DNA from: Cellvibrionales bacterium
GTDB lineage: Bacteria > Pseudomonadota > Gammaproteobacteria > Pseudomonadales > GM7GCV1
Assembly: GCA_014323765.1 (NCBI GenBank)
Contig: JACONM010000010.1
Span: 188,125 to 252,124, forward strand
Length of the DNA stretch: 64,000 nt
Direction of reading: 5' to 3'
Shown: one piece after another, positions 5,950-64,000 of the stretch
Numbering within the stretch: the first letter of the stretch is position 1
How the letters are laid out: each line of letters opens with the position of its first letter
Position numbers and translations under genes: made by a program
Notes under the pieces: model-generated
What the model was told of the DNA's origin: nothing
The model's database searches: none
Seen by the model: only the letters and a program-made list of their open reading frames with translations

Positions 5950-5970
5950 GATGCGTCCGCCGTGTTTGCG

Positions 5971-16652: not shown

Positions 16653-16678
16653 GGTGGGGCCTCTCATTTTCTGGAATG

Positions 16679-27863: not shown

Positions 27864-27966
27864 AGTGGCTGCGGCGGGTGGGCGGGGCGGTGTAGGGCAT
27901 TGAGCATGCTACACTGCGACGGCTTTATTAGGGCGGTGGGATGATAGCAGGTTGGAGGTTTGGGCT

Positions 27967-30374: not shown

Positions 30375-30387
30375 TGGGGGCATTACC

Positions 30388-30822: not shown

Positions 30823-30849
30823 CCGGGTGCCGGGCGCGTGGGGGGAGGA

Positions 30850-32274: not shown

Positions 32275-33034
32275 CGGATTGCCAGCCGCTGAGCAGGGGG
32301 AAGCGGCGGTCTGCGGCCCGTTCGCCTGCCGGTACGCTGGCTTTGCGCAGGCTGCTCCATGCTAGGCAGAGGTTGGAGGTCAGAGTGGGTTTGCCGGTGG
32401 CTTGTTGTAGATCGATGATCGCTTGCAAGCCCGGCATGCCGGTGCCGGCAATCAAAATGATATCGGCTGCGGCGGGCTTGAGTTTGCGCTCGATTTGCCG
32501 GGTGGCGGTGGCCCCTTGCAGGGCGTAGATCGAGCGGGTGTCGCCCGCCTCCGGCTGTACCGACATGCTGTCGACGATCTGGAGGCCGGTGCTTTGCCAG
32601 TAGCGGTAAGCTCGATCGAGCAGCCACTGCGGGTAGGGGCAGGCGAGGGCGATGGATTGTGCGCCGAGAAACGCTAGGGCATCGCGGATGGCGGTAGCGG
32701 CTGTGATTATCGGGTGGCCGTGCTGTTGTTCTAGGCGGTCGATCTGCTCGCGTTCTGCAGTTGGATCCAATAGGTAGCTGGAGCCGGTGCAGGCGAAGGC
32801 GAAAGCATCGAGTTTGAGGGTATCAAAGCTGGCTAGGGCCGGTGCTAGGCCGGTGAAGTAGTCGAGCAGGCGTTGTTCGGGTTCGCCGCGGCTGGTTAGG
32901 CGGGTGGTCAGCATGCTGACCCCGGCGGGCAGTAACATGCCGAATTCCACTTCCGCCGTCGGGTTTGCCTGTGGGGTGCCGAGGCCAATTCGCGCCAGCC
33001 TGCCGTAGTCGCGGTTATGTGCCATTTGCGTCAA
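32258..33034 (-). CDS. maleate cis-trans isomerase / arylmalonate decarboxylase-like (Asp/Glu racemase superfamily)
   Basis: 258 aa with the two Cys-containing half-sites typical of the family (AFACTGSSYL and TLTSNLCLAWS). Confidence 0.65.
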   Translation of the reverse strand: MTQMAHNRDYGRLARIGLGTPQANPTAEVEFGMLLPAGVSMLTTRLTSRGEPEQRLLDYFTGLAPALASFDTLKLDAFAFACTGSSYLLDPTAEREQIDRLEQQHGHPIITAATAIRDALAFLGAQSIALACPYPQWLLDRAYRYWQSTGLQIVDSMSVQPEAGDTRSIYALQGATATRQIERKLKPAAADIILIAGTGMPGLQAIIDLQQATGKPTLTSNLCLAWSSLRKASVPAGERAADRRFPLLSGWQSAIRQL

Positions 33035-33077
33035 TCCTGTCTTACAGTGGTACTGTTATAGTATTGCAATTCACAAA

Positions 33078-48287: not shown

Positions 48288-50819
48288 TTAAAACCGATAC
48301 TCTAGGTCTACGCCTAGCGATTGGCGCGGCGAGTCGTGGACGAAGGAGCCGCCGAACTCTGGGGCGGTTACTACTTCGTTTAGGTATTCCTCATCGGTGA
48401 TATTTTTGCCCCATGCGGCGACGGTTAGGTTTTCGCTGCTGAAGGCTACCCGCAAATTGAACAAGTCATAGGGGTCGCGCTTGGTGCGACTAAATTCGCC
48501 TTCGCCAAACCCCCTTGCCGTAAAGAGGTTGGGGAGCTTGTTGGCCTGCACCGCATGGAACCAAGTATCGCCGACATAGGCCCAATCCAGCCGAGCGGTC
48601 ATTTGCCAGCCGCGGGATATATCTGTGTTGAAGGTGGCTCCTAGGTTGTAAGTGGAATCGGCGGCGTAGGGCACTTCGTTGCCGACGGTGTAGGGGCGGT
48701 TTTGGCTTTTTTCAATTTCCCCGCTCAGCCAACTGCCGGCGGCGTAAAGAGACAACTGGTCATTGATGGCTATATTGGCATCCAGTTCAAATCCTTGAAT
48801 AGAGACTTCATCGATATTGGTAACAGTCCGCAACAAACCGAAGGGGCCGACGTAGAATTCGAAAAACTGCATATCGTCCACATCGGTATTGTAGGCGGCG
48901 GCATTGAGGGTGAAGCGACCGTCCGCCCAGCTGGATTTCAGCCCCAACTCAAGTGAACGTGATACTTCTTTCTCAAATTCGTCGTTGATATTCAAGACCC
49001 GAAGATCAAATGGAGTCGTTTCGCCTGCTCGGGTCAAGCCACGATAAAACTCTTCGATAGTCGCCTTAGTTCCCTGCGAATTGAAGCCGCCGCTTCTAAA
49101 GCCAACGCCATAGCTGGCGTAGAGAGACCAACTGTCCGCGGGTTTCCAGTTTAGGGTCAGCTTGGGTTGTGCTTGAGAAAAATCCTTGCTGCGGTCGTCA
49201 ATGGTGTCGTTAAAACGAAAAGCCGGATTGATAGGATCAAGTTCTCCGTTTCCATCAGCATCTATGGTGGCCGCATCCTCATTGGGTACTTGGTTGGAGA
49301 CGTCGCGCTCCTCACGGTCGTAGCGCAGGGCGAAGGCGACTTCTAGGTCCGGAGATAGATCGTATGCCACTTGACCGAACAGGGCGTAGATGCGGCTGTC
49401 GAAAATATCGTGGTACAGCAGATCGGTTGGGCTATCGCTGTCCGCGGCGTTGTAGGCCCGCCTAGCAATCGGCCTCTCTCGGCCTTGATCATCCGCTGTT
49501 TGTTCGCCTTGAGCCACCACCACTTCACGCTCCACATCGCCAAAATAAACCCCGCCCAGCCAGCGTACAGACTCTCCCCCCCCGGCTGGCGAGGCAAACC
49601 GAAGCTCTAGGCTAAAGTCTTTTTGGTTGCGCTCTTGGTATTGATAGCCATCGCAGGTGGTGGGGCTGTAAGGTGATAAAAATTCAGTAGCACCTCGAGG
49701 GTCACCAGTACCGTATCCGAACGGTGGATTGTACCGTAACGTACCATCCTCGTGATCTTTGGCTCTTGCGGCGAAAGAAGCTATACAGTGCGGCTCATTT
49801 GAATAAATATCAAAGCCAGCACTAGTGCCATCAGTCAGAAAATGATTTTCCTGATCGTTGTAGGAAAATACTCCAGTGAGATCTGCCCAATCGAGTTGAT
49901 AATCAAACTTGGTTGCAAAGTTGAAATTATCCTGTTCGTTTTCCGGTTCGATATTGGTCAGATACTGGTATTTGTGGTCGTTAACATCCTGATAAAAAGC
50001 GGGGAAACTGAGTGCCGCTGCCGCATCCACCAAATGCACCGACGCATTGTAGCCAATAGCCGCCCCCTCAGCTTGACTCAGCGCAATGCGGGTATCCCAT
50101 GCCATGGTATCGGTGGGGGACCAGATAAGGCGGGCATTGAGGGCTTGCTCTTCGTAATTATCGACCACTTTTTTATTGAGGTAGTCGTTGCGGAAGTGGC
50201 CGTCGGTCTCGCGGCTTACTAGGCTTAGTCGGCCGGCCAATGATTCGCCGAGCGGGCCGCTGACAACACCGCGCAGCACTTGGGTGGAGTTATTGCCAAT
50301 GCCTAGCCCCAGTTTGCCTTCCGTCTCATCGCCGGGTTTTTTGGTATTGACGATGATCGCGCCAGCTAGAGCATTGCGACCGTAGAGGGCCCCTTGCGGA
50401 CCTTTGAGGATCTCGATTTGTTGAACATCGGCGAGTTCACGGTTGAAAGCGTTGGGGTTAGTCAGGAGTACACCGTCCACCACGTAGGCGAAGCTGGCTT
50501 CCGCATCGCGGCCTGTGTTAATGCCGCGGATGCTGACTTGGGTATCGCCGATCTCCGCCGTGTTGGTCATGGTTACCCCGGGGGTTAGCATGATGAAGTC
50601 CTCGGGCCGCTCTATGCCGGCATCGCGGATGGCACCCTCGGTGAGCACGGTAATAGAGTCCGGCACATCTTGCAGGCTTTCTTCCCGCAGCCGGGCGGTG
50701 ATCACTATTTCTTCCACGACCATGCCTGAGTCGGGGGCGGCTAATAGCGGCGCGGTTGGCATTATTGCGGCGGTCAACAGGAAAGCTGCGGCTAGGCGGG
50801 TTTTGCTAATGGGTTGCAT
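48288..50819 (-). CDS. TonB-dependent receptor (TBDR-2)
   Basis: 843 aa with a signal peptide, plug motifs (EEIVITARLREESLQDVPDSITV, IEILKGPQGALYGRN), and a C-terminal ...DLEYRF. Confidence 0.9.
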   Translation of the reverse strand: MQPISKTRLAAAFLLTAAIMPTAPLLAAPDSGMVVEEIVITARLREESLQDVPDSITVLTEGAIRDAGIERPEDFIMLTPGVTMTNTAEIGDTQVSIRGINTGRDAEASFAYVVDGVLLTNPNAFNRELADVQQIEILKGPQGALYGRNALAGAIIVNTKKPGDETEGKLGLGIGNNSTQVLRGVVSGPLGESLAGRLSLVSRETDGHFRNDYLNKKVVDNYEEQALNARLIWSPTDTMAWDTRIALSQAEGAAIGYNASVHLVDAAAALSFPAFYQDVNDHKYQYLTNIEPENEQDNFNFATKFDYQLDWADLTGVFSYNDQENHFLTDGTSAGFDIYSNEPHCIASFAARAKDHEDGTLRYNPPFGYGTGDPRGATEFLSPYSPTTCDGYQYQERNQKDFSLELRFASPAGGGESVRWLGGVYFGDVEREVVVAQGEQTADDQGRERPIARRAYNAADSDSPTDLLYHDIFDSRIYALFGQVAYDLSPDLEVAFALRYDREERDVSNQVPNEDAATIDADGNGELDPINPAFRFNDTIDDRSKDFSQAQPKLTLNWKPADSWSLYASYGVGFRSGGFNSQGTKATIEEFYRGLTRAGETTPFDLRVLNINDEFEKEVSRSLELGLKSSWADGRFTLNAAAYNTDVDDMQFFEFYVGPFGLLRTVTNIDEVSIQGFELDANIAINDQLSLYAAGSWLSGEIEKSQNRPYTVGNEVPYAADSTYNLGATFNTDISRGWQMTARLDWAYVGDTWFHAVQANKLPNLFTARGFGEGEFSRTKRDPYDLFNLRVAFSSENLTVAAWGKNITDEEYLNEVVTAPEFGGSFVHDSPRQSLGVDLEYRF

Positions 50820-52742: not shown

Positions 52743-54623
52743 TCAGGGGGGACTCTTCAGCCGCCGCCACAGGGTCGTCTGGCTAATGCCGAGGTAACCA
52801 CTGACTTTGGCTTTATCGCCACCGAACTTTTTCATGGCATCCATGATCAGGCTCCATTCCTGCTCTTTGAGGGTGCCGGCTGGGGCTGCGGCGGAAGGAG
52901 TCGGAGGATCGCTTTTCTTGGACCGTTCCGCGGACCATTCCGGCAACAGAGAGGGTAGGGCATGCACAAATTGTTCCGGATCGGTAAATATCGGGCGACT
53001 CACCAGCAAGCGTTCCACTGCATTTTCCAGCTGGCGCACATTGCCTGGCCATGCGTAGCTGCGAAGTTGCTTGCCACAGAGGGAGAAAATTTCCGCTATA
53101 TCGACTTCTAAGCGATACCGCTGTTTGATTTTTTCTGCAAAATAGTTGGCGATCGCGGGAATATCGGCGGGTCGCTCGCGCAGGGCCGGCAAATCGATGG
53201 TGAAGACGTTGACGCGATAAAACAGGTCTTCGCGGAAGGTGCCGGCTTTTACCGCATCTAGCAAATTCTGATTGGAGGCGCACACAAACTTCAGGTGCAG
53301 GGATATTTCTTTATTGGTGCCGAGCGGCCTTATTCTGCGGTCTTGCATGGTGCGCAACAGTTTGGCCTGTTGGGTTAGGGGGAGCTCGCTGATTTCATCG
53401 AGGAAGAAAACGCCATTGTTGGCGGCTTCCAACAAGCCGGTGCGCCCGCCGCGCTTGGAGGTGGTGAAGGCCCCATCGACGTAGCCGAATAGCTCGCTTT
53501 CGAATAATTCTTCCGGTACGGCACCGCAGTTAATCGCGATAAACTGGCCGCCCTTGAACGGCCCGCTGCGGTGAAGTTCGCGGGCGATTAATTCTTTGCC
53601 GGTGCCGGTCTCCCCGGTAATCAACACGGTGCCGGCCGTGGCGGCATAGGTGGGCAAAATGCGGTGGATCTGCGCCATTTTTTCAGACGCATAAACCATC
53701 TGATGATCGGTCGGTGTTTGCCCTTTGGCTGCGCTGGTTTTGGCCTCGCCGGTGCGCATACTGTATAGATAGGCGCGTTTCTTGCCTTTGATGTTGAGTA
53801 GCTGTCGGGTAAAAAAACGCGGGGTGCCATTGAGTTCTACATGGAATTGTTTGCCGCCGCGCCCGGTGCCCGTCTGAATGAGTTGCGCCAGCCGCAAGGC
53901 ATCTGCCTCGTCGGCGGCACCGAGCTTGGCCATGGCGGTCTGGTTATAGCGCAACAGATCGCCAGCAAAGTTCGCCACCAGCACCGGCGGCCCGGCACCT
54001 TCTAGAACCGAATTATCAATGGCGTGGTTTAATTTTTGCTCGATAGTTTCCTCGCCCTTCGCGATGGCGGCTTCGATAAGTTCGCGGCAGGATGAGCGCG
54101 AATAGACGAGCAGGCTTTTCAAATTTTGTTGCTCGGCCAGATCGCACACATGGCTGGAACCTATCACGACATCGATGTTTTCCGGAATATGCAAATACAG
54201 AAGTTCACGCGCTTCATTCGGGGTGCTGTAGGTTTTATGGATAAGTTCCGCAGTGAAGTACTGGCGAATAAAGTCCAGCACCCGATATTCTTTTTGGTAG
54301 GTGATTAGCAGTATTTTTTTGCCGATCTTGGCCGCTTTATGCAGGGCATCCAAAATGTCCCCTTCGGTGACGGCGATTCCTAGGGTGGGCACGGATAGCA
54401 GCGACTGTAAATAGCTGGCATTGGCACCGGCACTAATGACTAGATCGGCATCCTTACCCTCTACCAGTTCGTCAACGCTGCTGTCCTGCGTTAGGATGTG
54501 GTCGGCGATCTCAAAATGAGCCTGCCCGGCAAATTCTGGGTGAACCACGCTCATCAGCTGGCTGAATTTGCGATAGCCGACGATCAATATCTTTGGTTTA
54601 TCCCGACCGATTATTCTCCACAT
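52743..54623 (-). CDS. sigma-54-dependent transcriptional activator, PrpR family (PrpR_N sensor + AAA+ + Fis HTH)
   Basis: 626 aa. The N-domain resembles PrpR (KILIVGYRKFSQL...ISAGANASYLQ). AAA+ motifs are VLITGETGTGKELIAREL, GAFTTS (GAFTGA variant) and FFLDEISELP. The C-terminal HTH is YLGISQTTLWRRLK. Confidence 0.9.
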   Translation of the reverse strand: MWRIIGRDKPKILIVGYRKFSQLMSVVHPEFAGQAHFEIADHILTQDSSVDELVEGKDADLVISAGANASYLQSLLSVPTLGIAVTEGDILDALHKAAKIGKKILLITYQKEYRVLDFIRQYFTAELIHKTYSTPNEARELLYLHIPENIDVVIGSSHVCDLAEQQNLKSLLVYSRSSCRELIEAAIAKGEETIEQKLNHAIDNSVLEGAGPPVLVANFAGDLLRYNQTAMAKLGAADEADALRLAQLIQTGTGRGGKQFHVELNGTPRFFTRQLLNIKGKKRAYLYSMRTGEAKTSAAKGQTPTDHQMVYASEKMAQIHRILPTYAATAGTVLITGETGTGKELIARELHRSGPFKGGQFIAINCGAVPEELFESELFGYVDGAFTTSKRGGRTGLLEAANNGVFFLDEISELPLTQQAKLLRTMQDRRIRPLGTNKEISLHLKFVCASNQNLLDAVKAGTFREDLFYRVNVFTIDLPALRERPADIPAIANYFAEKIKQRYRLEVDIAEIFSLCGKQLRSYAWPGNVRQLENAVERLLVSRPIFTDPEQFVHALPSLLPEWSAERSKKSDPPTPSAAAPAGTLKEQEWSLIMDAMKKFGGDKAKVSGYLGISQTTLWRRLKSPP

Positions 54624-54645
54624 TATCTTTGCTATGACAGTGAAT

Positions 54646-54675
54646 GCGCCGCGCCCAAGAGGAAGGCGGCGGCGC
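54646..54675. terminator. GC-rich hairpin between the methyltransferase-like gene and the activator gene
   Basis: GCGCCGCGCC-caagaggaa-GGCGGCGGCGC forms a 10-bp stem with one bulge. There is no clear U-tract, so terminator function is uncertain. Confidence 0.3.
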
Positions 54676-54688
54676 GAGCAAAGCGGCT

Positions 54689-55603
54689 CTATTCAGGTTT
54701 GCGGAATAGGAGGGTCATGCGGTTGGATTCGCCGATGTTTTGCATTGCTGCTGTTGTGTCGGGGTCGTCGGGGCCGCGTAGGCTGGGGGGGAGGCGCCAG
54801 ACGGACTGGTCGATCTGCGGGCGGTCTTGGGGGTTGGCGTTAAAATCCGCGCTATCCAAAAGCTCAAAACCTGCCGCTTGGAAGCGGGCGATGACTGCCG
54901 CCTTTTTCACATAGCCATTTTCACCTGAGGCCCAGCTGTCTGGCATGTCGGGGCGGGCTTCGTGCTGCACCACGCCGAGCAGACCGCCGGGTTTTAGGGC
55001 GGCATGGGCATTGGCGGCGGCCTGCGCGAAAAAGTCCGGCTGGCCGCTGTCGGGATCGCCGCTAAAACGCATCAGGTTGTGCAAGGCACGGATAAATAGC
55101 ACCCGGTCGGCACTGCCCTGCATGGCCGGCGGCAGGGCACCGAACACGAAAGCATCGAATGTCGCGCTGTTTGCCAGTTCCCAAGCGGCGGCTTGCTGCG
55201 GCCAATTCTGTGCCCATGTCGCTTTGGCTTGCAGGCGTTCCTCATCCATAAAGCCAAAGTTGGCGTAGAGCGCAAGCGGGTAATCGGCCCCGATCAGGCG
55301 ACCCTGCGGGCCTAGCCAGGCGGCGAGTATTTTCGAATACCAGCCGCCGCTGGGTAGGGCTTCGACCACGGTCATGCCGGGGCGAACATCGAAAAACTCT
55401 AGCGTTTGTAGCGGACGGCGATAAGGGAAGCGCACCTGCACCTCTTCTGGCTGTGCCATGAGCAGCTGTTGCAGGGCATCGCGGTCGAATGGGGCGGCGG
55501 CGGGCGGTGCCTCTGCGGTGGCAGGTGCCTCAGGGGCGGGCGGTTCGGTGCGTTCGCATGCGGCCAACAGGAGCACTGCCGCCAATCCAATTAGCTGTTT
55601 CAT
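54689..55603 (-). CDS. class I SAM-methyltransferase-fold lipoprotein (predicted periplasmic)
   Basis: Refined start is the ATG at 55603, with GGAGA 6 nt upstream. It has the lipobox LLLAAC, and VVEALPSGGWYSKIL resembles methyltransferase motif I. Confidence 0.6.
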   Translation of the reverse strand: MKQLIGLAAVLLLAACERTEPPAPEAPATAEAPPAAAPFDRDALQQLLMAQPEEVQVRFPYRRPLQTLEFFDVRPGMTVVEALPSGGWYSKILAAWLGPQGRLIGADYPLALYANFGFMDEERLQAKATWAQNWPQQAAAWELANSATFDAFVFGALPPAMQGSADRVLFIRALHNLMRFSGDPDSGQPDFFAQAAANAHAALKPGGLLGVVQHEARPDMPDSWASGENGYVKKAAVIARFQAAGFELLDSADFNANPQDRPQIDQSVWRLPPSLRGPDDPDTTAAMQNIGESNRMTLLFRKPE

Positions 55604-55767
55604 TGCGTCTCTCCATCCTTTAATAGGGGCTATGGGCGCAAGGTACCACAGATACGGGGGACATAAAACCGGGCGACACGGCGGACACCGTGCTGGTAGA
55701 CTGTGCGCCCATGTTGCCCGCCCGGTTGCGTCGGCTGTGGGTACACTCATCGCCTGAACGCAAGCCA

Positions 55768-57102
55768 ATGCAAAAAAGCCCCGTGCGCCGCCGCTGGATT
55801 ATCACTGTCGCCGCCTGCATCCTGATTTTGGCTGCGCTGGTCGGCTTCAAAGTGTTGCAAATTCGCGGGGTGCTCGCCTTTGTCGCCGCGCTGCCGGAGC
55901 CGGCGGAAACCGTGCATGCGGTCACGGTCGAGGTTCGGGAGTTGCACCAGCAGATCGACACCCTCGGCACCGTGGTGGCCCCGCAGAGCGTCGAGCTGCG
56001 CAATCAGCTGGATGGGCGGGTGGTGGCGGTGCATTTTCGCGGCGGCGAGGCGGTGAGTGCGGGGCAGGTGCTGTTGGAACTGGACACCCGTGAGGAACGC
56101 GCCGGGCTAAAAGGGGCGCGGGCGCGGGCGGAATTGGCGCGGTTGGAATTGGAGCGGGCGCGCAAGCTGCGTGCCAGCCGCACCGTGAGCCAGGAACGGC
56201 TGGACCAGGCGCAAGCGCAACATCAGGTGGCACTGGCCGATATAGAAATGCTTGAGGCGCAGATCGACAAAAAAACCCTGCGGGCCCCGTTCGCCGCGCA
56301 CACCAGCTTGCACCAGTTTGAAGTGGGCGATTTTCTGCCGGCCAATAGCTTGATTACCGAACTGGTCGGCAGTGGCGAATTCGTCTGGGTGGACTTTTCC
56401 CTGCCCATCGAGCAGGCGCATATCGGCTTGGGCAACCGGGTGCAGGTGTACTTGCCCGGGGTGTCTGGCGCGGCGGTTGAAAGTCCGGCTGGCCCGGTGG
56501 GCGATGAGTTGAATGGTGCGGTAACCGATGAGTCGGCTGGCGCAACGGGTGAGGGGTCGATCAGTGCAATGGCCGCGGTACAGGATGGCGTGGCGGTTGC
56601 GGGGGCGGGTGCATTGCGGGTTGCGGAGCCGGATGATGCGGCGATCGAGGTGCGGGATGATGCGGCGGGCGAGTTGCCGAATAATGCGATGGTCGCGGGG
56701 CAAATTATCGCCAAAAATCCCGCTCTCTCGGCGCGCTCGCGTACCCTAGACTATCGCGCTCGGCTGCCCGCCCATGCGCAGCTGCCGCACAATAGCTTGG
56801 TCAATGTGCGGATCGAGGGTAGCCGGGCGCGGCGACTGCCGGTGATTCCGGTGACCGCCTATCGCATCGACCAGCTCGGGGCTTTTGTCTATGTGCTGGA
56901 ACGGGGCGCGGGCGAGGAGGGTCATCGGGCACAGCGGCGGGCGGTGGTGGCCGGGCAGCGCGGCGGGCAGACCATCGCCATTGAAAGCGGCTTGGTCGGC
57001 GGTGAGTTGATCGCCACTCGGGGGGCGTTCAAACTGCGCGAGGGCATTCTGGCGAATGTTGCGCCGGCGAGTTCCTCCGATGGCACCGGGGTGGCGCAGT
57101 AA
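55768..57102 (+). CDS. membrane-fusion (HlyD/RND periplasmic adaptor) family protein, orphan
   Basis: Refined start is the ATG at 55768 (MQKSPVRRRWIITVAACILILAALV, a TM anchor). It has a lipoyl-like domain plus a coiled-coil hairpin (LELDTREERAGLKGARARAELARLELERARKL). Confidence 0.7.
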   Translation: MQKSPVRRRWIITVAACILILAALVGFKVLQIRGVLAFVAALPEPAETVHAVTVEVRELHQQIDTLGTVVAPQSVELRNQLDGRVVAVHFRGGEAVSAGQVLLELDTREERAGLKGARARAELARLELERARKLRASRTVSQERLDQAQAQHQVALADIEMLEAQIDKKTLRAPFAAHTSLHQFEVGDFLPANSLITELVGSGEFVWVDFSLPIEQAHIGLGNRVQVYLPGVSGAAVESPAGPVGDELNGAVTDESAGATGEGSISAMAAVQDGVAVAGAGALRVAEPDDAAIEVRDDAAGELPNNAMVAGQIIAKNPALSARSRTLDYRARLPAHAQLPHNSLVNVRIEGSRARRLPVIPVTAYRIDQLGAFVYVLERGAGEEGHRAQRRAVVAGQRGGQTIAIESGLVGGELIATRGAFKLREGILANVAPASSSDGTGVAQ

Positions 57103-57142
57103 TCCAAAACTTCATGCAGCAAACTGACAGAGGGCTAATGCG

Positions 57143-58741
57143 ATGAATTTTCTCGACTATTTCATTGTGGCGATCTATCTGGCCGGCATGCTCGGCTTGG
57201 GGCTGATGATGCGCAAGCAGAGCTCGGAGACTTCCTATTTTCTGGGCGATAAAAGCCTGAATTGGTTTCCGCTTGCGCTGTCGACCATGGCGACTCAGCT
57301 GTCGGCGATCAGTTTTATCTCCGCGCCGGCGTTTGTCGGGTTGCGCGAGGGGGGCGGGCTGAAGTGGCTGACCTATGAGTTTGCCGTGCCGCTGGCGATG
57401 ATCTTTGTCATGTTTGTGATTGCGCCGGCTCTGTACCGCGCCAAAGTGGTCAGTATTTACGATTTTCTGGAACGCCGCTTCGGGCGTTCTAGCCGGCTGT
57501 TGATCAGTGCGTTGTTTCAGATTGTGCGCTCGTTTAGCACCGGCATTATGGTCTACGCCTGTGCGATTGTGTTGCAGGCGGTGTTGGGCATTCCATTCTG
57601 GCAATCCATCGTGGGGGTCGGAGTGGTTGCGCTGATCTATTCGACCACCGGCGGCATGAAAGCGGTGGTCTACAGCGATGCCATTCAGATGGTGCTGATA
57701 TTTGGCGGGATTATTTTGGTGGCGGGGTTTGCGCTGCATCAGGTGGGCGGCTTTGGGGCTTGGTTTAATGCGGTCGAGCCGGCGCGGCTGTTTGCGGTCG
57801 ATTTTTCTTCTTTTGGGTTTGGCGGCGATGAGTTTGGCTTTTTGCCGATGCTGTTTGGCGGGTTTGTGCTGTATGTGTCTTATTACGGGTGCGACCAGAC
57901 GCAAACGCAGCGCATTCTGTCGGCGCGGGATATGCCGGCGGCGCGGCGGCTGTTGCTGGCCAATGGGCTGTTGCGTTTTCCGCTGGTGTTGATCTATTGC
58001 TTTGCCGGGCTGGTGGTGGGCGTGGCGGTGATGCAGTCGCCGGACCTGCTGGCACAGATACCGGCGGACCGTCCGGATTTTATGATGCCGGTGTATATCG
58101 TCGAGCAGCTGCCGCATGGGTTGATCGGCTTGCTGCTGGTGGCGATTATGGCGGCGGCGATGTCGTCGTTTAGCTCGACCATGAACTCGCTGGCCGCCGT
58201 GACTTTGGAGGACATTCGCACTCTGGGATTGAAATTCGCCAGTCCCCGACTGGAAATTATCGGGGCGCGGGCCTTGTCGGTGGGGTGGGGGCTGCTGATT
58301 ATTGTGCTGTCCTTTTTTGCTGGTTCCATTGCGCCGACGGTGATCGAGGCGATCAACAAGGTCGGCTCGGCCCTGTACGGGCCGATTCTGGGCGTGTTCG
58401 GGCTGGCGATTCTGACCCGCAATCGGTCGGCGGTGGGGGTCAATGCTGGGCTGCTTGTTGGGTTGGCACTCAATTTGTATTTCTGGAAGTTTGTGCCGGA
58501 GCTCTTCTGGATGTGGTGGAACCTGATTGGCTTGCTGGTGACTCTCGTGGTGGCTGTTTTGGTGGGTTTTTTCTTTCCCGGGCGGGCGGCTATGGAGGAT
58601 GCGCCGGCGTTTGCTCAAGAGGATCGCTGGAATGGCACCGCGGCGAACCGTCGCAGCGTGGGCATTTTGGCGGGGTATTTTGGCTTAATTGTGGCGATCA
58701 GCGTTGCGCTGGGCACTCTGGCGATGGGCGGAGAATTTTAG
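57143..58741 (+). CDS. sodium:solute symporter (SSS/SLC5 family, PanF/monocarboxylate-type)
   Basis: 532 aa with about 13 TM helices. N-terminus: DYFIVAIYLAGMLGLGLMMRK...FLGDKSLNWFPLALSTMATQLSAISFISAPA. Confidence 0.85.
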   Translation: MNFLDYFIVAIYLAGMLGLGLMMRKQSSETSYFLGDKSLNWFPLALSTMATQLSAISFISAPAFVGLREGGGLKWLTYEFAVPLAMIFVMFVIAPALYRAKVVSIYDFLERRFGRSSRLLISALFQIVRSFSTGIMVYACAIVLQAVLGIPFWQSIVGVGVVALIYSTTGGMKAVVYSDAIQMVLIFGGIILVAGFALHQVGGFGAWFNAVEPARLFAVDFSSFGFGGDEFGFLPMLFGGFVLYVSYYGCDQTQTQRILSARDMPAARRLLLANGLLRFPLVLIYCFAGLVVGVAVMQSPDLLAQIPADRPDFMMPVYIVEQLPHGLIGLLLVAIMAAAMSSFSSTMNSLAAVTLEDIRTLGLKFASPRLEIIGARALSVGWGLLIIVLSFFAGSIAPTVIEAINKVGSALYGPILGVFGLAILTRNRSAVGVNAGLLVGLALNLYFWKFVPELFWMWWNLIGLLVTLVVAVLVGFFFPGRAAMEDAPAFAQEDRWNGTAANRRSVGILAGYFGLIVAISVALGTLAMGGEF

Positions 58742-58744
58742 GCG

Positions 58745-60016
58745 GTGGCCGCCGGTGCCGAGCGCGCCCTGCTGGAGAGTGCCTTTCACGCGGCAGTCGC
58801 CGCCTGTCAAGCGGCGCGTTGCCTGCCGGCGCGGTTGCCGACCACCCCGCCGGCGGGCAAAACTATAGTGCTGGGCGCGGGCAAGGCCGCCGCGGCCATG
58901 GCGGAGGTCGCCGCGCAAACTCTCACTGGGGAGCTGACCGGGTTGGTGGTAACGCGGCGCGGGGACGGCATCGGTCGGCGGGCCAGGCCGATTGAAATTA
59001 TGGAAGCGGCGCACCCGCTGCCGGACGACTCTTCGCAACAGGCGGCGGTGCGCATTCTGGAATTGGCGCATGCGGCTGGGGCGGCGGACCGGGTGATTTT
59101 TTTAATCTCCGGCGGCGGTTCGGCGTTGTTGTCTTGCCCGGCGGCGGGGGTAACGGGGGCGGAAAAGCGGGCCTTAAATCAGGCCCTGCTGCACAGTGGG
59201 GCGACCATCGCCCAGATCAATCTGGTGCGCGCTCATCTTTCTAAAGTGAAGGGCGGTCGATTGGCGGAGGCGGCCCTGCCGGCGGAGCTGTTGACCTTTA
59301 TTATTTCCGATGTGGTGGGCGATGACCCGGCTCTAGTCGCTTCTGGGCCGACTGTGCCCGCCGCCCTGGACCCTGAGCGGGCGCGGCAGATTCTGGATGA
59401 TTATGGGATCGCGGTGCCGGCGACCGTGGCCGCCGCGATTGCTGCCGCCAAACCGGTCGCTGCTGCTGCCGCCCATCCGGTCGACATTATTGCCGGCGCG
59501 GCGGATGCCCTCGCGGCGGTGGCGGCGTTTTTGACGGAGCGCGGGTGGCGGGTGTTGGACCTTGGCGCGGATTTGGAAGGGGAGGCCGCCGCGGTCGGGC
59601 GGGCGCACGGGCGGCAGGTGCTCGCCCGGCGTGCTAAGCAGGTGAACGGCGAGCGCATCGCCATGATTTCTGGCGGGGAACTGACGGTTACGGTTACTAA
59701 TCCGGACGGTCGCGGCGGCCCCAATTTGGAGTATCTGACCGGCCTGATGCTGAGCTTGGACGGCGCGGCGGGGGTGCATGCGTTGGCTTGCGACAGCGAT
59801 GGCATCGATGGCTCGGAGGACAACGCCGGCGGCTACCTTGCGCCCGATTCCCAGCAGCGTGCCATAACCGCCGGCTTGGATCCCGCGGCACTGCTGGCCG
59901 CCAATCGCAGCTACGATATTTTTCACGCCATCGGCGGGCTAATCAAAACCGGCCCGACCCAGACCAATGTCAACGATATTCGCATTATCCTGATCGACCC
60001 GGCAGGGCGCGACTAG
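58745..60016 (+). CDS. glycerate 2-kinase / hydroxypyruvate reductase-like (DUF4147 + MOFRL)
   Basis: 423 aa with VLGAGKAAAAMAE, ISGGGSALL and a C-terminal CDSDGIDGSEDNAGG...GPTQTNVNDI. The GTG start is 4 nt after the symporter stop. Confidence 0.75.
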   Translation: MAAGAERALLESAFHAAVAACQAARCLPARLPTTPPAGKTIVLGAGKAAAAMAEVAAQTLTGELTGLVVTRRGDGIGRRARPIEIMEAAHPLPDDSSQQAAVRILELAHAAGAADRVIFLISGGGSALLSCPAAGVTGAEKRALNQALLHSGATIAQINLVRAHLSKVKGGRLAEAALPAELLTFIISDVVGDDPALVASGPTVPAALDPERARQILDDYGIAVPATVAAAIAAAKPVAAAAAHPVDIIAGAADALAAVAAFLTERGWRVLDLGADLEGEAAAVGRAHGRQVLARRAKQVNGERIAMISGGELTVTVTNPDGRGGPNLEYLTGLMLSLDGAAGVHALACDSDGIDGSEDNAGGYLAPDSQQRAITAGLDPAALLAANRSYDIFHAIGGLIKTGPTQTNVNDIRIILIDPAGRD

Positions 60017-60048
60017 GTAAGGCGGAGCGCAGCTAGGCAAACAAACGG

Positions 60049-61353
60049 ATGACACCAATGAGCAAAGACAAGAACGCCCTAGATCAACGGGCCATTTCCA
60101 TTCTGCAGGGCAACGACCGCGGCGGTTACACGGTGCCGACGCACGGCCTGTATCCCTATCAGTGGAATTGGGATTCGGCTTTTGTGGCTTTAGGTTTTGC
60201 GGTGTTTGACCCCGACCGCGCCCTGCGCGAGCTGGAGACGCTGTTTGAAGGGCAGTGGCGCAATGGCATGTTGCCGCACATTATCTTCCGGGCGGATGAT
60301 CCGGATTATTTTCCGGGGCCCGGCGTGTGGCGCACCGGCACTCGTCCGCCTTCCTCCGGTATCAGCCAACCGCCGGTGGTGGCGAGCATTGTCTGGCGGC
60401 TTTGGGAACGCTGGGCGGAGGGGCCGCAACGGGCGCGACTCAAGGGGCTATTCCCGAAATTGCTGGCTTTGCACCGCTGGTTTCACAGTGCGCGTGACCC
60501 CGGCGGGCAGGGGGTGGTGGTGGCGACTCATCCTTGGGAGTCTGGGCGCGATAATTCGCCGGAATGGGATGCGCCCCTGGCGGCGGTCGACACTTCTGGA
60601 GTCGAACCGTATCGGCGGCGCGATTTGAAGCACGTCAATGCCGCCATGCGCCCGACTGCGGCGCAGTACGATGGTTATGTCGCGCTGGTCGAATACGGGC
60701 GCGAGCAGGGCTGGGATACGCTGAAAATCGCCCGGGAAGGGCCCTTTCGGATGGCGGATGTCGGGTTGTCGTTTATTTTGCTGCGGGCGGACCGCGATCT
60801 GTTGCGGCTCGCGCAGGTCCTGGGCGACGAGCGCGCTGCGGCGGAAATTCAGGCTTGGATCGAGCGCGGGCTGGCTGGGGTGGAGCAGCTTTGGGACCCG
60901 GCGGCGGACACTTTTTGCTCGTGGGATCTGATTACCGGTCGCGCCTCGGGACAGCTGACCAGCGCGTCTTTTTTGTACGCCTACGCCGATGCGGGGACGG
61001 ACGCGCAACGGCAACGCATGCAGGGGCACTGGCAACGCATCGCCGAGCAAGTGCGCTTTACCCTGCCGAGTTTTGACCCGGATGAATCCGCCTTTGACCC
61101 CGCCTGCTACTGGCGCGGGCCTTGCTGGGCGGTGGTCAATCATATGGTGGCCCGCGGGTTTGCCGAACAGGGGCAGGGGGAAGCGGCGGCGCGAATCAAG
61201 GCTGACACCCGCCGGCTGATCGCAACGCACGGTTTCGCGGAAGCCTTCGACCCGGTCGCGGGCACGGCCAGTGGCGGCGGCGAATTTTCGTGGACGGCCG
61301 CCATGTGGCTGGCTTGGGCGGGGGTCGATGCAACGGATGAGGAGCAGCAATGA
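60049..61353 (+). CDS. GH63-like glucosylglycerate/mannosylglycerate hydrolase (MGH/GgH family)
   Basis: 434 aa. LYPYQWNWDSAFVALG, QWRNGMLPHIIF, GISQPPV, HPWESGRDNSPEWD, YWRGPCW and FSWTAAMWL match, from memory, the characterised mycobacterial GgH and Thermus/Rubrobacter MgH. Confidence 0.7.
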   Translation: MTPMSKDKNALDQRAISILQGNDRGGYTVPTHGLYPYQWNWDSAFVALGFAVFDPDRALRELETLFEGQWRNGMLPHIIFRADDPDYFPGPGVWRTGTRPPSSGISQPPVVASIVWRLWERWAEGPQRARLKGLFPKLLALHRWFHSARDPGGQGVVVATHPWESGRDNSPEWDAPLAAVDTSGVEPYRRRDLKHVNAAMRPTAAQYDGYVALVEYGREQGWDTLKIAREGPFRMADVGLSFILLRADRDLLRLAQVLGDERAAAEIQAWIERGLAGVEQLWDPAADTFCSWDLITGRASGQLTSASFLYAYADAGTDAQRQRMQGHWQRIAEQVRFTLPSFDPDESAFDPACYWRGPCWAVVNHMVARGFAEQGQGEAAARIKADTRRLIATHGFAEAFDPVAGTASGGGEFSWTAAMWLAWAGVDATDEEQQ

Positions 61354-61718
61354 ACGCAACCATCAACTATCAGGTCGGCGACAGCGACGAGCGGCCCTGG
61401 GGCCGCTGGCAGGTGCTGGCCACCGGCACCGGCTTCGCCATCAAAAAAATTGCCGTGAACCCGGGCGAGCGGCTGTCGCTGCAAGATCACCAGCATCGCA
61501 GCGAACATTGGATTGTGCTGCGCGGGCAGGCGGAGGTGACTCTAGGAGACGAAACTTTGCGACTGGACGCCAATGGGACCGTTTTTATCCCGCCCCAAAC
61601 CCGCCACCGCATCCACAATGTTGGGCAGGAGGTGCTGGAATTTATCGAGGTGCAGACTGGCGAGACGCTGGATGAGGCCGACATCCGCCGCTACCAAGAC
61701 CGTTACGGGCGGGTCTGA
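61350..61718 (+). CDS. cupin-domain protein, type II phosphomannose isomerase-like
   Basis: 122 aa. RPWGRW...PGERLSLQDHQHRSEHWIVLRGQAEV...IPPQTRHRIHN is the PMI type II cupin signature. It overlaps the upstream gene as ATGA. Confidence 0.7.
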   Translation: MNATINYQVGDSDERPWGRWQVLATGTGFAIKKIAVNPGERLSLQDHQHRSEHWIVLRGQAEVTLGDETLRLDANGTVFIPPQTRHRIHNVGQEVLEFIEVQTGETLDEADIRRYQDRYGRV

Positions 61719-61747
61719 AACGGGCCCAAAACGGGTCCAAAACAGGT

Positions 61748-62653
61748 ATGGACAAGCTCTACGGCGCCATCGAGGGCGGCGGCACCAAGTTTGTTTGCGC
61801 GGTCGGCGGCGGTGGCGAGCAGATCCTCGCTAAAACCGTTATTCCGACCCGCGATCCCGAAGTTACTCTGGCATCGGTGGCGCAATTTTTTCAGCAGCAA
61901 ACGCAACGACATGGGCCGCTAGTTTCCGTGGGTTTGGGCAATTTCGGGCCGCTGGACATCGATCCAAAATCCCGCACCTACGGGCAGATCATGCAGACCC
62001 CAAAACCGGGCTGGGCCGGCTTTGATCTGGTCGCCGACCTGATGCGCCGGTTGGCCGTGCCGATCGCGCTCGACACCGATGTGAATTGCGCCCTGCTGGC
62101 CGAGGCCCAATACGGTGCGGGGCGCGGTTGCGGCGATTTGGTGTATTTGACCGTGGGCACCGGCATCGGCGGCGGGGTGTTGAGCGGTGGGTGGCGGGTA
62201 CGGGGCACGGGGCACCCGGAGATCGGCCATCTGTTTGTGCCAAAACACCCGGATGACGGGTTCGCCGGTGCCTGCCCTTTTCACGGCGACCAGTGCATCG
62301 AGGGGCTGGCCAGCGGCCCGGCTATCGAACAGCGTTGGGGGTGCCCGGCGCAGAATTTGCCCGCCGCGCATCCCGCCTGGGAACTGCAGGCGCACTATCT
62401 GGCTTTGCTTTGCCACAATCTTTTTATGACTGTGGCCCCGGTGCGCATCATTCTCGGCGGTGGGGTCATGGCGCAGGCGCAGCTCTTCCCCATGATTCGC
62501 ACCCGATGTGCCGCGCTGGCTAACGGCTATGGGGTGCCGCCCGGCGGGCGCGATTGGGAGGCGGCCATCCGCCCGGTCGCGTTGGGCGGGGAGGCGGGAA
62601 TCCGCGGTGCTTTTCTGATCGCCGCAGCGGACGGGGTAAATGATCGCGTTTGA
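61748..62653 (+). CDS. ROK-family hexokinase (fructokinase/mannokinase-like)
   Basis: 301 aa with GAIEGGGTKFVC (ATP-binding), LTVGTGIGGG, and the ROK zinc motif CPFHGDQCIEG. Confidence 0.8.
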   Translation: MDKLYGAIEGGGTKFVCAVGGGGEQILAKTVIPTRDPEVTLASVAQFFQQQTQRHGPLVSVGLGNFGPLDIDPKSRTYGQIMQTPKPGWAGFDLVADLMRRLAVPIALDTDVNCALLAEAQYGAGRGCGDLVYLTVGTGIGGGVLSGGWRVRGTGHPEIGHLFVPKHPDDGFAGACPFHGDQCIEGLASGPAIEQRWGCPAQNLPAAHPAWELQAHYLALLCHNLFMTVAPVRIILGGGVMAQAQLFPMIRTRCAALANGYGVPPGGRDWEAAIRPVALGGEAGIRGAFLIAAADGVNDRV

Positions 62654-62656
62654 CGC

Positions 62657-62685
62657 TTGACAGGGGATCCTGTGTGCGGTACAAA
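62657..62685 (+). promoter_or_regulatory. candidate sigma-70 promoter for TBDR-3 (TTGACA-N17-TACAAA)
   Basis: Exact -35 at 62657..62662 and TACAAA at 62680..62685, about 105 nt upstream of the ATG at 62792. Confidence 0.3.
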
Positions 62686-62791
62686 GCGCAGGCGCATGAT
62701 AGTTCACCTATCGCCCGGGCAACCGGATCGCCGCTGGGACAGGGGCATGCGCAGGGTTACACCAACAGATCACTCCACTGGGGACAGCAAA

Positions 62792-64000
62792 ATGTTCAAG
62801 CTCAATGCTTATTTCACTGCGACTGCGGTCGCTTTTCTCGTTTCCTTGCCCGGCTTTGCCGCGGCCCAAGGGGATGCCCTCGACAGCGGCATGTTGGAGG
62901 AATTGGTGGTCACCGGCACCTCCCGCGCCCGCTCGGCTTTTGATTCCCCGCTGACGGTGACCCAGTTTGGCGAGGAAGAATTGGAAGCCCTGTCTTCCAA
63001 CAGCCAAGCCGATATTCTGCGCTTTGTGCCCGGCTTGAAAGCTGAGGGGGGGGGGGGGAAGTTGCCGCCAATATCTTTGTGACGGGCTTGCCGTCCGGCG
63101 GACAATACGCCTTTACCCCGCTACAATACGATGGCATTCCGGTATTCAGCACTTTCGGTTTGAACTCGTCCGCTTTCGATGTCTATATGCGCAATGATTT
63201 GGGCATCGAGCGGTTGGAATATGTATCGGGCGGGGCCTCCAACCTATTTGGGGCCGGTTCCGTAGCCGGGCTCATTAACTACATCAGTAAAACCGGCAGC
63301 GCCGACCCAGAAACCACTCTGCAATTTGAAATGGCTGAAGAGGGCCGCATCCGGGCGGATTTTGCTACCAGTGGTCCAATGTCCGAAGGGTCGGACAATT
63401 ATTACGCGCTGTCTGGCTATTACCGCTACGACGAAGGACCAATCGACACCGGCCTGCCGACCGAAGGTTTTCAGCTGCGCGGCAACTTTAAGCGGGAATT
63501 TGCGGACGGTTCCGGCAGCTTTACCATTTACACCCAGCTAATTGACGACAAGGTGCAATTCTTTCTGCCTTTCCCATTAGGAGCCGATCAGAGCCGCACC
63601 ACCGGCAACGATGGAGCGGAAGTTATGACAGTGCAAACCGCCGAGGCCGACCGCCTGACCTACCGCACCCCAGACGGCATTTTCACCACTCCGATCCGCG
63701 ATGGCGTGGCCACCAAGGGCGGCATGATCGCTTTTGACCTGACCAAAGAATTGGCCGATGGCTGGCAGTTTAATAGTAAGGCGAAATATGCCTCTTATCG
63801 GCATCAATTTAATCTTTTTCTGGATGGTGATGGTATTACCAATCAACCATTATCTTTAGAGGACTATCTAGATTCTCGTGATTTTGGCACCGAACCAGAA
63901 ACAGATGAGGAGGGCACCGTAGTCAACGAAAATATTGATGCGCCCAATGCCACAGCTACCTTCACCGCCACCGGCCAAGAAGTGCCCGATGGTTATTTGC
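62792..64000 (+). pseudogene. TonB-dependent receptor (TBDR-3), reading frame broken at a G13 tract; 3' end beyond the window
   Basis: The ATG at 62792 gives a signal peptide (MFKLNAYFTATAVAFLVSLPGFAAAQG) and a TonB box/plug (EELVVTGTSRARSAFDSPLTVT), then stops at 63082 after the G-run. The frame entered at 63058 (EVAANIFVTGLPSGGQYAFTPLQYDGIPVF...GGASNLFGAGSVAGLINYISK...) stays open to 64000. Confidence 0.75.
63046..63058. repeat. 13-nt G homopolymer inside TBDR-3, out of frame
   Basis: Counted directly: 5 G in block 63041-50 plus 8 G in block 63051-60. Confidence 0.95.

Follow-up and report, generated by a model that had tools for sequence, protein, structure and literature searches.

A Predicted Uptake and Catabolism Cassette for Glycosylglycerates in a Sponge-Associated Gammaproteobacterium

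Organization of the Locus

The window analysed here is a stretch of 64,000 nucleotides from a marine, sponge-associated gammaproteobacterium found in Lamellodysidea sponge metagenomes. Five genes lie on its plus strand: an SSS-family symporter (57143..58741, 532 aa), a MOFRL-type glycerate 2-kinase with a GTG start (58745..60016, 423 aa), a GH63 MGH1-like hydrolase (60049..61353, 434 aa, with an alternative start at 60058), a cupin of the phosphomannose isomerase (PMI) type (61350..61718, 122 aa), and a ROK kinase (61748..62653, 301 aa). The co-directional, tight packing described in the original prediction was borne out, with all five ORFs at the predicted coordinates and strand. The TAG codon of the symporter ends at 58741 and is followed by GCG and the predicted GTG start at 58745, which leaves a gap of 3 nt. 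The hydrolase and PMI genes overlap in the sequence ATGA at 61350–61353, which contains the stop of the former and the start of the latter, as a direct reading of the junction confirmed, and the remaining spacers within the five-gene set are 32 nt and 29 nt long. Four further assemblies of this organism, whose genes were called independently, contain the same genes; their sole difference is a hydrolase start located three codons later, giving a protein of 431 aa. The genes of the cassette are probably co-transcribed. Promoter and terminator scans of the locus performed no better than those of shuffled sequence, and no regulator was found in a search near the cassette.

The span of 57143–62653 originally proposed for the locus holds for the five genes but is incomplete, as it leaves out a member of the conserved set, the gene of a TonB-dependent outer-membrane transporter (TBDT). 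This co-directional gene starts 138 nt past the ROK stop and runs past the end of the window (62792..64000, plus strand), so that its first ~400 codons are inside. On the left, the locus is bounded by an RND efflux periplasmic adaptor gene (55690..57102, plus strand; TIGR01730, 148 bits, above the cut-off of 94.9), which is outside the catabolic set and was found in none of the 80 related loci. An AcrB-family pump gene, located outside the window 257 bp past the TBDT stop (L084:10145-12142; PF00873, 488 bits), is the likely partner of this adaptor.

Transporters

In the window assembly, the TBDT reading frame is broken at a homopolymer of 13 G (63046..63058, plus strand), and the signal peptide and plug motifs can be read across two frames. 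In assembly L081 the gene is intact and encodes a protein of 848 aa with Pfam matches to the Plug and barrel domains. The G tract codes for a conserved E-G-G-G-G-E plug motif, and its in-frame length is 14; all 39 of the 39 TBDT orthologues use GGC/GGT codons without a homopolymer at this motif. The TBDT orthologues adjoining the hydrolase in 44 of 80 related genomes have an identity of 46–76% over the best aligned stretch, mostly 50–62%. The tract length differs between the assemblies, being 14 in L081, 13 in the window, 12 in L084, and 11 in L083, while L082 has an N-gap and at least 20 G at this place.

The symporter matches PF00474 with 131 bits and TIGR00813 with 209 bits, above the 184-bit cut-off. 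Its closest solved relatives are anion and carboxylate carriers (NIS, SMVT, SMCT1, and the sialic-acid transporter SiaT), which outscore glucose carriers. We propose that it is the inner-membrane importer of the intact glycosylglycerate, the presumed substrate of both this carrier and the TBDT.

Hydrolase and Glycerate Kinase

The hydrolase had been predicted to be of the type of the glucosylglycerate (GgH) and mannosylglycerate (MgH) hydrolases, and a match to MGH1-like_GH (PF22422) with 373 bits agrees with this. When compared with the characterised enzymes, it has as its best solved relative the mannosylglycerate hydrolase TTHA0978 of Thermus thermophilus (PDB 2z07/4wva; E 4e-120, 48% identity), followed by the glucosylglycerate hydrolase of Mycobacterium hassiacum (MhGgH, 35.5% identity). 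The NCBIfam GluglyHdase score is 348.6, below the cut-off of 550. Of the 19 residues listed for the MhGgH structure (PMC6608630) and mapped onto the window enzyme, 18 are identical, including the catalytic Asp182/Glu419 and the residues binding glycerate, which in MhGgH is held by Arg216, Tyr36, Tyr88, and Tyr375 (PMC6608630). In the window hydrolase, catalytic D168 and E398 are kept, as are Y35, W39, W41, D42, Y87, Q107, G166, R201, Y207, Y354, and W355. The only mismatch is MhGgH Q434, replaced by F, which is also present in the Thermus enzyme. No signal peptide was found in the hydrolase sequence; thus, the glycoside must enter the cell intact. The assignment as a cytoplasmic GH63 MGH1-like glycosylglycerate hydrolase is well supported as a sequence-based prediction. 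Since the characterised MgH and GgH enzymes both hydrolyse mannosylglycerate and glucosylglycerate (PMC6608630), the sugar is not fixed by the sequence.

The glycerate kinase belongs to class II, with matches to DUF4147 (PF13660, 242 bits) and MOFRL (PF05161, 108 bits). Its best solved relative is the glycerate kinase of Thermotoga maritima (2b8n, E 3e-61), and its product is probably 2-phosphoglycerate.

Hexose Branch

The PMI cupin matches PF01050 (MannoseP_isomer) with 122 bits over profile positions 13–116 of 116. It is a stand-alone type II domain, which aligns to positions 353–467 of 467 in the model of the bifunctional GMP/PMI proteins (TIGR01479), and it carries the motifs SLQxHxHRxEHW and IEVQxG, which we take to be typical of the type II PMI family. 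No characterised or solved close relative of the stand-alone domain was found. The cupin would act as a PMI, and its ATGA overlap with the hydrolase gene ties the handling of mannose to the hydrolase.

The ROK kinase matches PF00480 with 192 bits. The original label of a ROK hexokinase holds for the family but is doubtful as to the substrate, as the nearest relatives are ROK fructokinases: the best solved ones are the Bacillus subtilis fructokinase 1xc3/3lm9 and 3ohr (E 1e-72), and B. subtilis YdhR/GmuE is matched with 249 bits. The NCBIfam ScrK score of 259 bits is below the cut-off of 400. We propose that the kinase phosphorylates the hexose released by the hydrolase, for which it would have a corresponding specificity.

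Conservation of the Neighbourhood

A lack of conservation of the neighbourhood had been named beforehand as a possible refutation of the predicted function. The same genes, however, adjoin the hydrolase in many unrelated genomes, which indicates that the arrangement is not due to chance. Among 80 related genomes, TBDT orthologues are the most frequent neighbours (44), followed by the glycerate kinase, for which 38 genomes have a homologue no more than 8 kb from the hydrolase at a query coverage of at least 50%, and 46 have one near it if no coverage filter is applied (E < 1e-10). This linkage between hydrolase and glycerate kinase is kept across classes. Inner-membrane carriers near the hydrolase belong to the SSS (17), MFS (33), or ABC (20) type; a ROK kinase adjoins it in 16 genomes, and PMI homologues occur in only three loci (L011, L029, and L070). 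SSS orthologues with 55–70% identity adjoin both kinase and hydrolase in L001–L007, L009, L011, L029, L032, and L070. The order symporter–glycerate kinase–hydrolase is colinear in L001–L007, which come from Woeseiaceae MAGs, other gammaproteobacterial MAGs, and one MAG labelled Myxococcota, whereas L070 (Henriciella) has the full symporter–glycerate kinase–hydrolase–PMI–ROK order, identical to that of the window. In a neighbour-joining tree, the window hydrolase is placed within the clade associated with TBDT, SSS, and glycerate kinase genes.

Proposed Route and Alternative Explanations

The gene content, the gene order, and the tight coupling of the locus are directly observed. Its hydrolase is closely homologous to characterised enzymes and retains all the catalytic and glycerate-binding residues, and many genomes preserve the linkage between the hydrolase, glycerate kinase, transporter, and TBDT genes. 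The import-and-catabolism function originally predicted is thus well supported by homology and context, while the choice between mannosyl- and glucosylglycerate is not settled by the sequence. In our opinion, the six genes probably constitute an uptake and catabolism cassette for alpha-glycosyl-(1->2)-D-glycerates, whose likeliest substrate is mannosylglycerate (digeneaside), with glucosylglycerate probably accepted too. The solute would cross the outer membrane through the TBDT, and the intact anionic glycoside would be carried to the cytoplasm by the SSS symporter, probably with Na+. Acting as an inverting enzyme in which Asp168 is the acid and Glu398 the base, the GH63 hydrolase would then cleave it into hexose and D-glycerate. 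The MOFRL kinase would convert glycerate to 2-phosphoglycerate, and the ROK kinase and PMI cupin together would convert mannose to fructose-6-phosphate. A literature search found no experiment on this locus or any orthologous one.

The same machinery could have glucosylglycerate from the cyanobacteria of the sponge as its natural substrate, with the PMI serving another purpose or a minor flux of mannosylglycerate; we regard this as rather unlikely, though it is the strongest of the alternatives. Marine picocyanobacteria accumulate glucosylglycerate, and most of the related loci either encode a ROK kinase or lack hexose enzymes altogether, only three of the 80 carrying PMI. Dense populations of the cyanobacteria Hormoscilla and Prochloron inhabit the source sponge, Lamellodysidea herbacea (PMC7313196), and could supply the solute, and the characterised enzymes of the family accept both solutes (PMC6608630). 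However, the ATGA overlap couples the translation of the PMI gene to that of the hydrolase gene, PMI recurs in three other loci, the hydrolase is closer to the Thermus MgH than to the mycobacterial GgH, and it misses the GgH equivalog cut-off. The fructokinase-like relatives of the ROK kinase (YdhR, ScrK) would also fit a reversed hexose branch, in which the cupin turns free mannose into fructose and the kinase then forms fructose-6-phosphate. Cupin-fold mannose/fructose isomerases do exist, namely, the D-lyxose isomerases. This variant is nevertheless improbable, as the match of the cupin to the type II PMI domain is strong and spans it from one end to the other, the cupin carries the motifs presumably characteristic of that family, and we know of no type II PMI acting on unphosphorylated mannose.

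Every characterised bacterial member of the hydrolase family, such as those of Thermus, Rubrobacter, and mycobacteria, has been described as an enzyme by which cells recycle an endogenous compatible solute following stress (PMC5381378, PMC6608630). Such a role without scavenging is very improbable here: the hydrolase gene has the gene of an outer-membrane transporter on one side and that of an inner-membrane symporter on the other, this linkage is kept in many genomes, and no gene for glycosylglycerate synthesis was seen among the annotated genes of the window. The hydrolase could also be a generic GH63 alpha-glucosidase or resemble a trehalase, with some other glycoside as its substrate and with unrelated neighbour genes. 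In favour of this, close homologues bear the database names "trehalase family glycosidase", "glycogen debranching enzyme", or "hypothetical protein", and there is a weak Pfam Trehalase match (25 bits). We give this explanation hardly any credence, since the match to the E. coli glucosidase YgjK reaches just 27 bits over 120 residues, the residues binding the glycerate carboxylate are all kept, and so is the cross-class linkage to glycerate kinase.

Comparison with Known Systems

The claim that a scavenging locus with a symporter, a GH63 hydrolase, and a glycerate kinase had not been described proved wrong, as predicted flavobacterial loci were published in 2016 and 2018. Kappelmann et al. (2018) reported "digeneaside PULs" in 11 North Sea flavobacteria, e.g., Cellulophaga and Maribacter, with the content LacI :: TonB-dependent receptor :: GH63 :: SSS transporter :: glycerate kinase, and cited Barbeyron et al. 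(2016) on Zobellia galactanivorans for a predicted digeneaside locus (PMC6298971, supplementary text and Table S3). The window locus is thus not a new system but a fresh example of this predicted cluster type in a gammaproteobacterium, with a mannose branch added. The shared core comprises a TonB-dependent receptor (not SusC-like and without SusD), a GH63 enzyme annotated as trehalase, an SSS transporter, and a glycerate kinase. The route postulated for those loci is the same as well, the likeness being one of gene content between two predicted systems; a literature search found no experimental test of the flavobacterial loci. The independent interpretation of these genes in flavobacteria as a digeneaside locus supports the cassette interpretation. 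The differences are the host (Bacteroidota in the published cases), the gene order, the LacI regulator, which is lacking in the window locus, and the PMI and ROK genes, by which the window locus itself encodes the mannose branch.

The Thermus MgH (TTHA0978, PDB 2z07/4wva-c) and the M. hassiacum GgH (PDB 5ohc and others) belong to the same GH63 MGH1-like fold family as the window hydrolase and have the same catalytic Asp/Glu and substrate-binding residues, except for the Q434 to F replacement relative to MhGgH. They were studied as recyclers of the cells' own solutes, whereas the window enzyme is encoded in an import and catabolism cassette with two transporters. The mngRAB system of E. coli, consisting of the PTS permease MngA and the GH38 phospho-mannosidase MngB, deals with the same substrate class and yields the same end products, mannose phosphate and glycerate. 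In contrast, the window locus has neither a PTS component nor a GH38 enzyme; we propose that the unphosphorylated solute is imported and cleaved by GH63, and that ATP-dependent kinases phosphorylate both halves afterwards.

The logic of the cassette is that of the proteobacterial TonB-dependent carbohydrate utilisation (CUT) loci, such as the Xanthomonas sucrose locus, in which a small glycoside is taken up through a TonB-dependent receptor and an inner-membrane carrier and is cleaved by a cytoplasmic glycosidase. The window copy differs in its predicted substrate and its enzyme family and in having no dedicated regulator found, and the related loci exchange the inner carrier among the SSS, MFS, and ABC types.

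Gene content and junctions of the cassette

All five genes of the original prediction (57143-62653) were found in the window at the predicted coordinates and on the predicted strand. They encode an SSS-family symporter, a MOFRL-type glycerate kinase, a GH63-like hydrolase, a phosphomannose isomerase (PMI) cupin and a ROK-family kinase, and each family was unambiguous in the profile searches. The junctions were read directly and agree with the prediction: the TAG stop codon of the SSS gene ends at 58741 and the GTG start of the glycerate kinase gene is at 58745, a spacer of 3 nt, while the hydrolase and cupin genes have a common ATGA at 61350-61353. The other spacers in the cassette are 32 nt, between the kinase and hydrolase genes, and 29 nt. 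Gene calls in four further assemblies of the same organism (L081-L084) agree with those in the window, with the exception of the hydrolase start, which is placed three codons later (431 aa vs. 434 aa). The span of 57143-62653 is nevertheless too short. A co-directional gene starting at 62792, 138 nt past the stop codon of the ROK kinase gene, encodes a TonB-dependent transporter (TBDT), bearing both a signal peptide and the plug typical of TonB-dependent receptors, and belongs in the set; the locus should be extended over it.

The symporter matches PF00474 and exceeds the cut-off of TIGR00813. Its closest solved relatives are iodide, multivitamin, monocarboxylate and sialic-acid carriers, with glucose carriers scoring lower, a ranking that agrees weakly with a substrate bearing a carboxylate. 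The glycerate kinase has the class II two-domain layout, with matches to DUF4147 (242 bits) and MOFRL (108 bits), and among solved structures the Thermotoga glycerate kinase 2b8n comes closest to it (E 3e-61); the window protein misses the cut-offs of the archaeal glycerate kinase equivalog (198 vs. 550 bits). Characterised class II (MOFRL) glycerate kinases produce 2-phosphoglycerate. The PMI cupin (122 aa) matches PF01050 with 122 bits and covers positions 353-467 in the TIGR01479 profile (467 positions), which is the C-terminal type II PMI domain. The N-terminal nucleotidyltransferase (GMP) domain of the bifunctional enzyme is absent from this protein, and its TIGR01479 score of 126 bits is far under the cut-off of 373. 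The last of the five proteins had been described as a ROK hexokinase. Its family assignment stands, and the nearest proteins are ROK fructokinases: Bacillus subtilis YdhR matches with 249 bits, and NCBIfam ScrK with 259 bits, which is under the curated cut-off of 400 and yet the best score of any ROK subtype.

The putative glycosylglycerate hydrolase

The assignment of the hydrolase (60049-61353) to the mannosylglycerate and glucosylglycerate hydrolases (MgH and GgH) is borne out by comparison with the characterised enzymes. Residues 35-416 cover the whole PF22422 profile (MGH1-like GH63, positions 1-356 of 356) with 373 bits against a cut-off of 27. The best solved relative is the mannosylglycerate hydrolase TTHA0978 of Thermus thermophilus (E 4e-120), followed by the glucosylglycerate hydrolase of Mycobacterium hassiacum (MhGgH, E ~1e-58); the Escherichia coli glucosidase YgjK is a marginal match only. 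Over the aligned regions, the identity is 48% with the Thermus enzyme and 35.5% with MhGgH. The protein is classed here as a putative MGH1-like glycosylglycerate hydrolase nearer to the Thermus MgH, rather than as a GgH equivalog, because its score against NCBIfam NF047898 (the mycobacterial-type GgH equivalog) is 348.6 bits, under the curated cut-off of 550. Its closest homologue in a large protein collection is 66% identical, and its best matches in species-representative genomes are just 51-64% identical.

The active site was checked using the residue list of MhGgH from Cereija et al. 2019 (PMC6608630), from which 19 residues were mapped. The catalytic acid and base are kept, D168 and E398 aligning with Asp182 and Glu419 of MhGgH and with D165 and E393 of the Thermus enzyme. 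All 11 strictly conserved substrate contacts (Tyr36, Trp40, Trp42, Asp43, Tyr88, Gln115, Gly180, Arg216, Tyr222, Tyr375 and Trp376 in MhGgH numbering), which according to the MhGgH list bind the sugar and the glycerate carboxylate, are identical. The sole mismatch among the mapped residues is Gln434, replaced by Phe. The Thermus enzyme, reported to act on both substrates, has the same replacement, and the active site was rejected as a discriminator between mannosyl- and glucosylglycerate. Characterised MgH/GgH family members cleave both compounds (PMC6608630). No signal peptide was found at the N-terminus of the hydrolase, which places the enzyme in the cytoplasm, so that its substrate must enter intact.

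Proposed pathway

The best-supported reading of the cassette, judged from its sequence, is a putative scavenging pathway for a glycosylglycerate. The glycoside would cross the outer membrane by TonB-dependent uptake and, as an intact anion, would be symported into the cytoplasm by the SSS protein. There it would be hydrolysed to a hexose and D-glycerate; the MOFRL kinase would phosphorylate the glycerate, and the ROK kinase together with the PMI cupin would convert mannose to fructose-6-phosphate. The import-to-catabolism route of the original prediction is largely right in these terms: its gene content and hydrolase assignment hold, while the substrates of the transporters, the identity of the sugar and the sugar specificity of the ROK kinase are what we infer.

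Translational coupling of the PMI and hydrolase genes favours mannose as the sugar released; against the mannose branch stands the rarity of PMI genes in related loci (3/80). The two hexose steps might also run in the reverse order, with mannose converted to fructose and then to fructose-6-phosphate. The kinase's proximity to ROK fructokinases (YdhR, 249 bits; ScrK, 259 bits) speaks for this order, which we nevertheless consider quite improbable compared with phosphorylation of mannose ahead of isomerisation.

Regulators resembling the LacI, ROK and LysR types of related loci were looked for in the window, L081 and L084, and none turned up. Scanning 54500-64000 for promoters and terminators yielded the same counts as shuffled sequence. 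Divergent from the neighbouring adaptor gene is an ORF at 54689-55768 on the minus strand (304-359 aa) that matches neither Pfam nor NCBIfam models. As the sole unassigned gene adjoining the cassette, it is a candidate gene for a regulator that escaped recognition.

Conservation in related genomes

In a scan of species-representative genomes, at least 566 stretches encoded a hydrolase relative. For the 80 best-matching of these loci (L001-L080), linkage was counted up to a distance of 8 kb from the hydrolase gene; the 80 loci are mostly from Proteobacteria, with a few from Verrucomicrobiota and single other MAGs, and none is flavobacterial. An orthologue of the window TBDT is present in 44 of the 80 loci (46-76% identity over the best stretch, most 50-62%), and a MOFRL glycerate kinase in 38. 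The inner-membrane carrier is of the MFS type in 33 loci, of the ABC type in 20 and of the SSS type in 17. ROK kinases were found in 16 loci and PMI cupins in three; the regulators are of the LacI type (26 loci), the ROK type (23) or the LysR type (16). The gene neighbourhood proposed by the original prediction thus recurs in relatives among the best 80 loci.

The TBDT, SSS, kinase and hydrolase genes are colinear in gammaproteobacterial MAGs, including those of Woeseiaceae, and in a single MAG carrying a Myxococcota label. The order SSS-kinase-hydrolase-PMI-ROK is identical in a Henriciella locus (L070), and the order hydrolase-SSS-kinase-PMI occurs in Iodidimonas (L011) and in L029. On the neighbour-joining tree of the hydrolases, loci cluster by transporter type, and the window protein falls into the TBDT/SSS/kinase clade. 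Three transporter versions of the loci track this tree. The version with TBDT, SSS and kinase is found in L001-L008, MAGs labelled Woeseiaceae, Gammaproteobacteria, Pseudomonadota and Myxococcota, and in some Alphaproteobacteria. The version with TBDT, MFS and kinase belongs mostly to Sphingomonadales, and the version with LacI and an ABC transporter, without TBDT, to Hoeflea, Pseudovibrio, Stappia/Labrenzia and relatives.

Comparison with known systems

Red algae, cyanobacteria and many bacteria contain mannosylglycerate and glucosylglycerate as abundant compatible solutes. To our knowledge, their consumption by other microbes has been demonstrated experimentally solely for the PTS route of E. 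coli. Neither a PTS EIIABC permease nor a GH38 phospho-alpha-mannosidase was detected among the locus proteins by profile search, unlike the mngAB system of E. coli.

The original prediction held that a locus combining symporter, hydrolase and glycerate kinase was not described. This is wrong, since published predictions of digeneaside (mannosylglycerate) PULs exist (PMC6298971). In their supplement, Kappelmann et al. 2018 assign "digeneaside PULs" to eleven flavobacteria from the North Sea, give the content in Table S3 as LacI regulator, outer-membrane receptor, GH63 (trehalase), SSS transporter and glycerate kinase, and credit the Zobellia galactanivorans study of Barbeyron et al. 2016 as the source (PMC6298971). 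The assignment is repeated in a Maribacter genome paper. These flavobacterial loci are bioinformatic predictions, and literature searches returned neither an experimental test of them nor an account of proteobacterial versions. The searches also returned no characterised transporter for mannosyl- or glucosylglycerate besides the E. coli PTS, and these solutes are not mentioned in a 2026 review of bacterial glycoside transporters.

The likeness of the window locus to the flavobacterial ones is one of gene content, the flavobacterial side being known here by its published description. The window hydrolase likewise adjoins a glycerate kinase and an SSS symporter (3-nt and 32-nt spacers), and the window TBDT likewise has no SusD partner, no SusD-family gene appearing in the gene lists of L081-L084. 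In contrast to the flavobacterial loci, the window locus has no LacI regulator, a gammaproteobacterial host, a different gene order, and additional PMI and ROK kinase genes. It is a further case of an already predicted kind of locus, and the claim to novelty fails. The value of this window is modest: it offers a clean, self-contained example with a mannose branch, from a sponge symbiont. The hydrolase-centred locus itself is widespread (at least 566 stretches, with SSS, MFS and ABC versions), and the cassette is a testable example of its predicted pathway. Cultured carriers among the matched genomes (Iodidimonas, Erythrobacter, Novosphingobium, Sphingomonas, Pseudovibrio and Stappia) make the published prediction directly testable.

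Position of the cassette and homopolymer tracts in TBDT genes

RND adaptor and pump genes flank the six-gene cassette rather than adjoining each other: the adaptor gene lies on one side (55690-57102), and on the other is an AcrB-family pump gene (L084:10145-12142), about 1.6 kb past the window end. This suggests insertion of the cassette into an efflux operon. Third-position GC is 0.73-0.76 in the adaptor gene and the first five genes of the cassette (SSS to ROK), compared with 0.59 in the window overall and 0.60 in the TBDT gene, which hints at a foreign origin of the block 55690-62653. In L084, the flanks of the cassette were searched for direct and inverted repeats, with only short, chance-level matches. 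The adaptor gene was considered as a member of the locus and rejected: it is missing from all 80 related loci and is likely the partner of the pump beyond the cassette. In L081, apparent breaks in the genes for the adaptor, the glycerate kinase and the pump coincide with 100-N gaps (6916-7015, 9210-9309, 16579-16678 and 18607-18706) and are scaffolding artefacts, not pseudogenes or real variation.

The ORF of the cassette TBDT shifts frame at a run of 13 G (63046-63058) and runs on in another frame to the window end. In L081, a 295-kb scaffold, the gene is intact, encoding 848 aa with Plug and beta-barrel Pfam matches. The tract encodes the conserved E-G-G-G-G-E motif of the plug, for which the in-frame length is 14 G; the same Gly4 motif is present in 39 of 39 orthologues, where it is encoded by GGC/GGT codons with no homopolymer. 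Across five assemblies, the tract is 14, 13, 12 or 11 nt long or is a gap with at least 20 G. The window has two other TBDT genes, at 23650-26292 (880 aa) and 48288-50819, and its only G/C homopolymers of at least 8 nt are G13 at 63046-63058, G13 at 25343-25355 and C8 at 49576-49583, one inside each of the three TBDT genes.

The differences in tract length could reflect phase variation. Technical error at homopolymers is at least as likely a source, because the second tract has miscalled flanks and N-gaps between assemblies. It is possible, though unlikely, that the cassette is a horizontal insertion between the adaptor and pump genes whose outer-membrane gate is toggled by slipped-strand changes in a 14-G tract, made by recoding the Gly4 motif as GGG. 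Taken with the G/C tracts in the other two TBDT genes, such switching, if true, would give a sponge symbiont phase-variable nutrient receptors, and the cassette would hold the first carrier of an anionic glycoside in the SSS family.

Source of the sequence and other genes of the window

The same sequence is present in assemblies of BioProject PRJNA320446, which comprises Lamellodysidea herbacea sponge metagenomes from Guam (PMC6520454, PMC7313196). The window LeuC shares 68-73% identity with proteins from genera of Cellvibrionales and Alteromonadales. The source is a gammaproteobacterium that probably belongs to Cellvibrionales or stands close to that order. At one window end (982-6867, minus strand), the genes prpF, acnD, prpC and prpB make up a complete methylcitrate-cycle cluster of the AcnD/PrpF type. 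A PrpR-like sigma-54 activator gene is located 46 kb from it (52743-54623, minus strand) and adjoins genes for an Asp/Glu racemase and two SnoaL-like proteins and the TBDT gene at 48288-50819. The region 26000-34000 has an unusually strong positive GC skew (0.20-0.31) with a negative AT skew, and its genes, on both strands, encode an aldehyde dehydrogenase, an amine oxidase, a second SSS symporter and an FAD monooxygenase.
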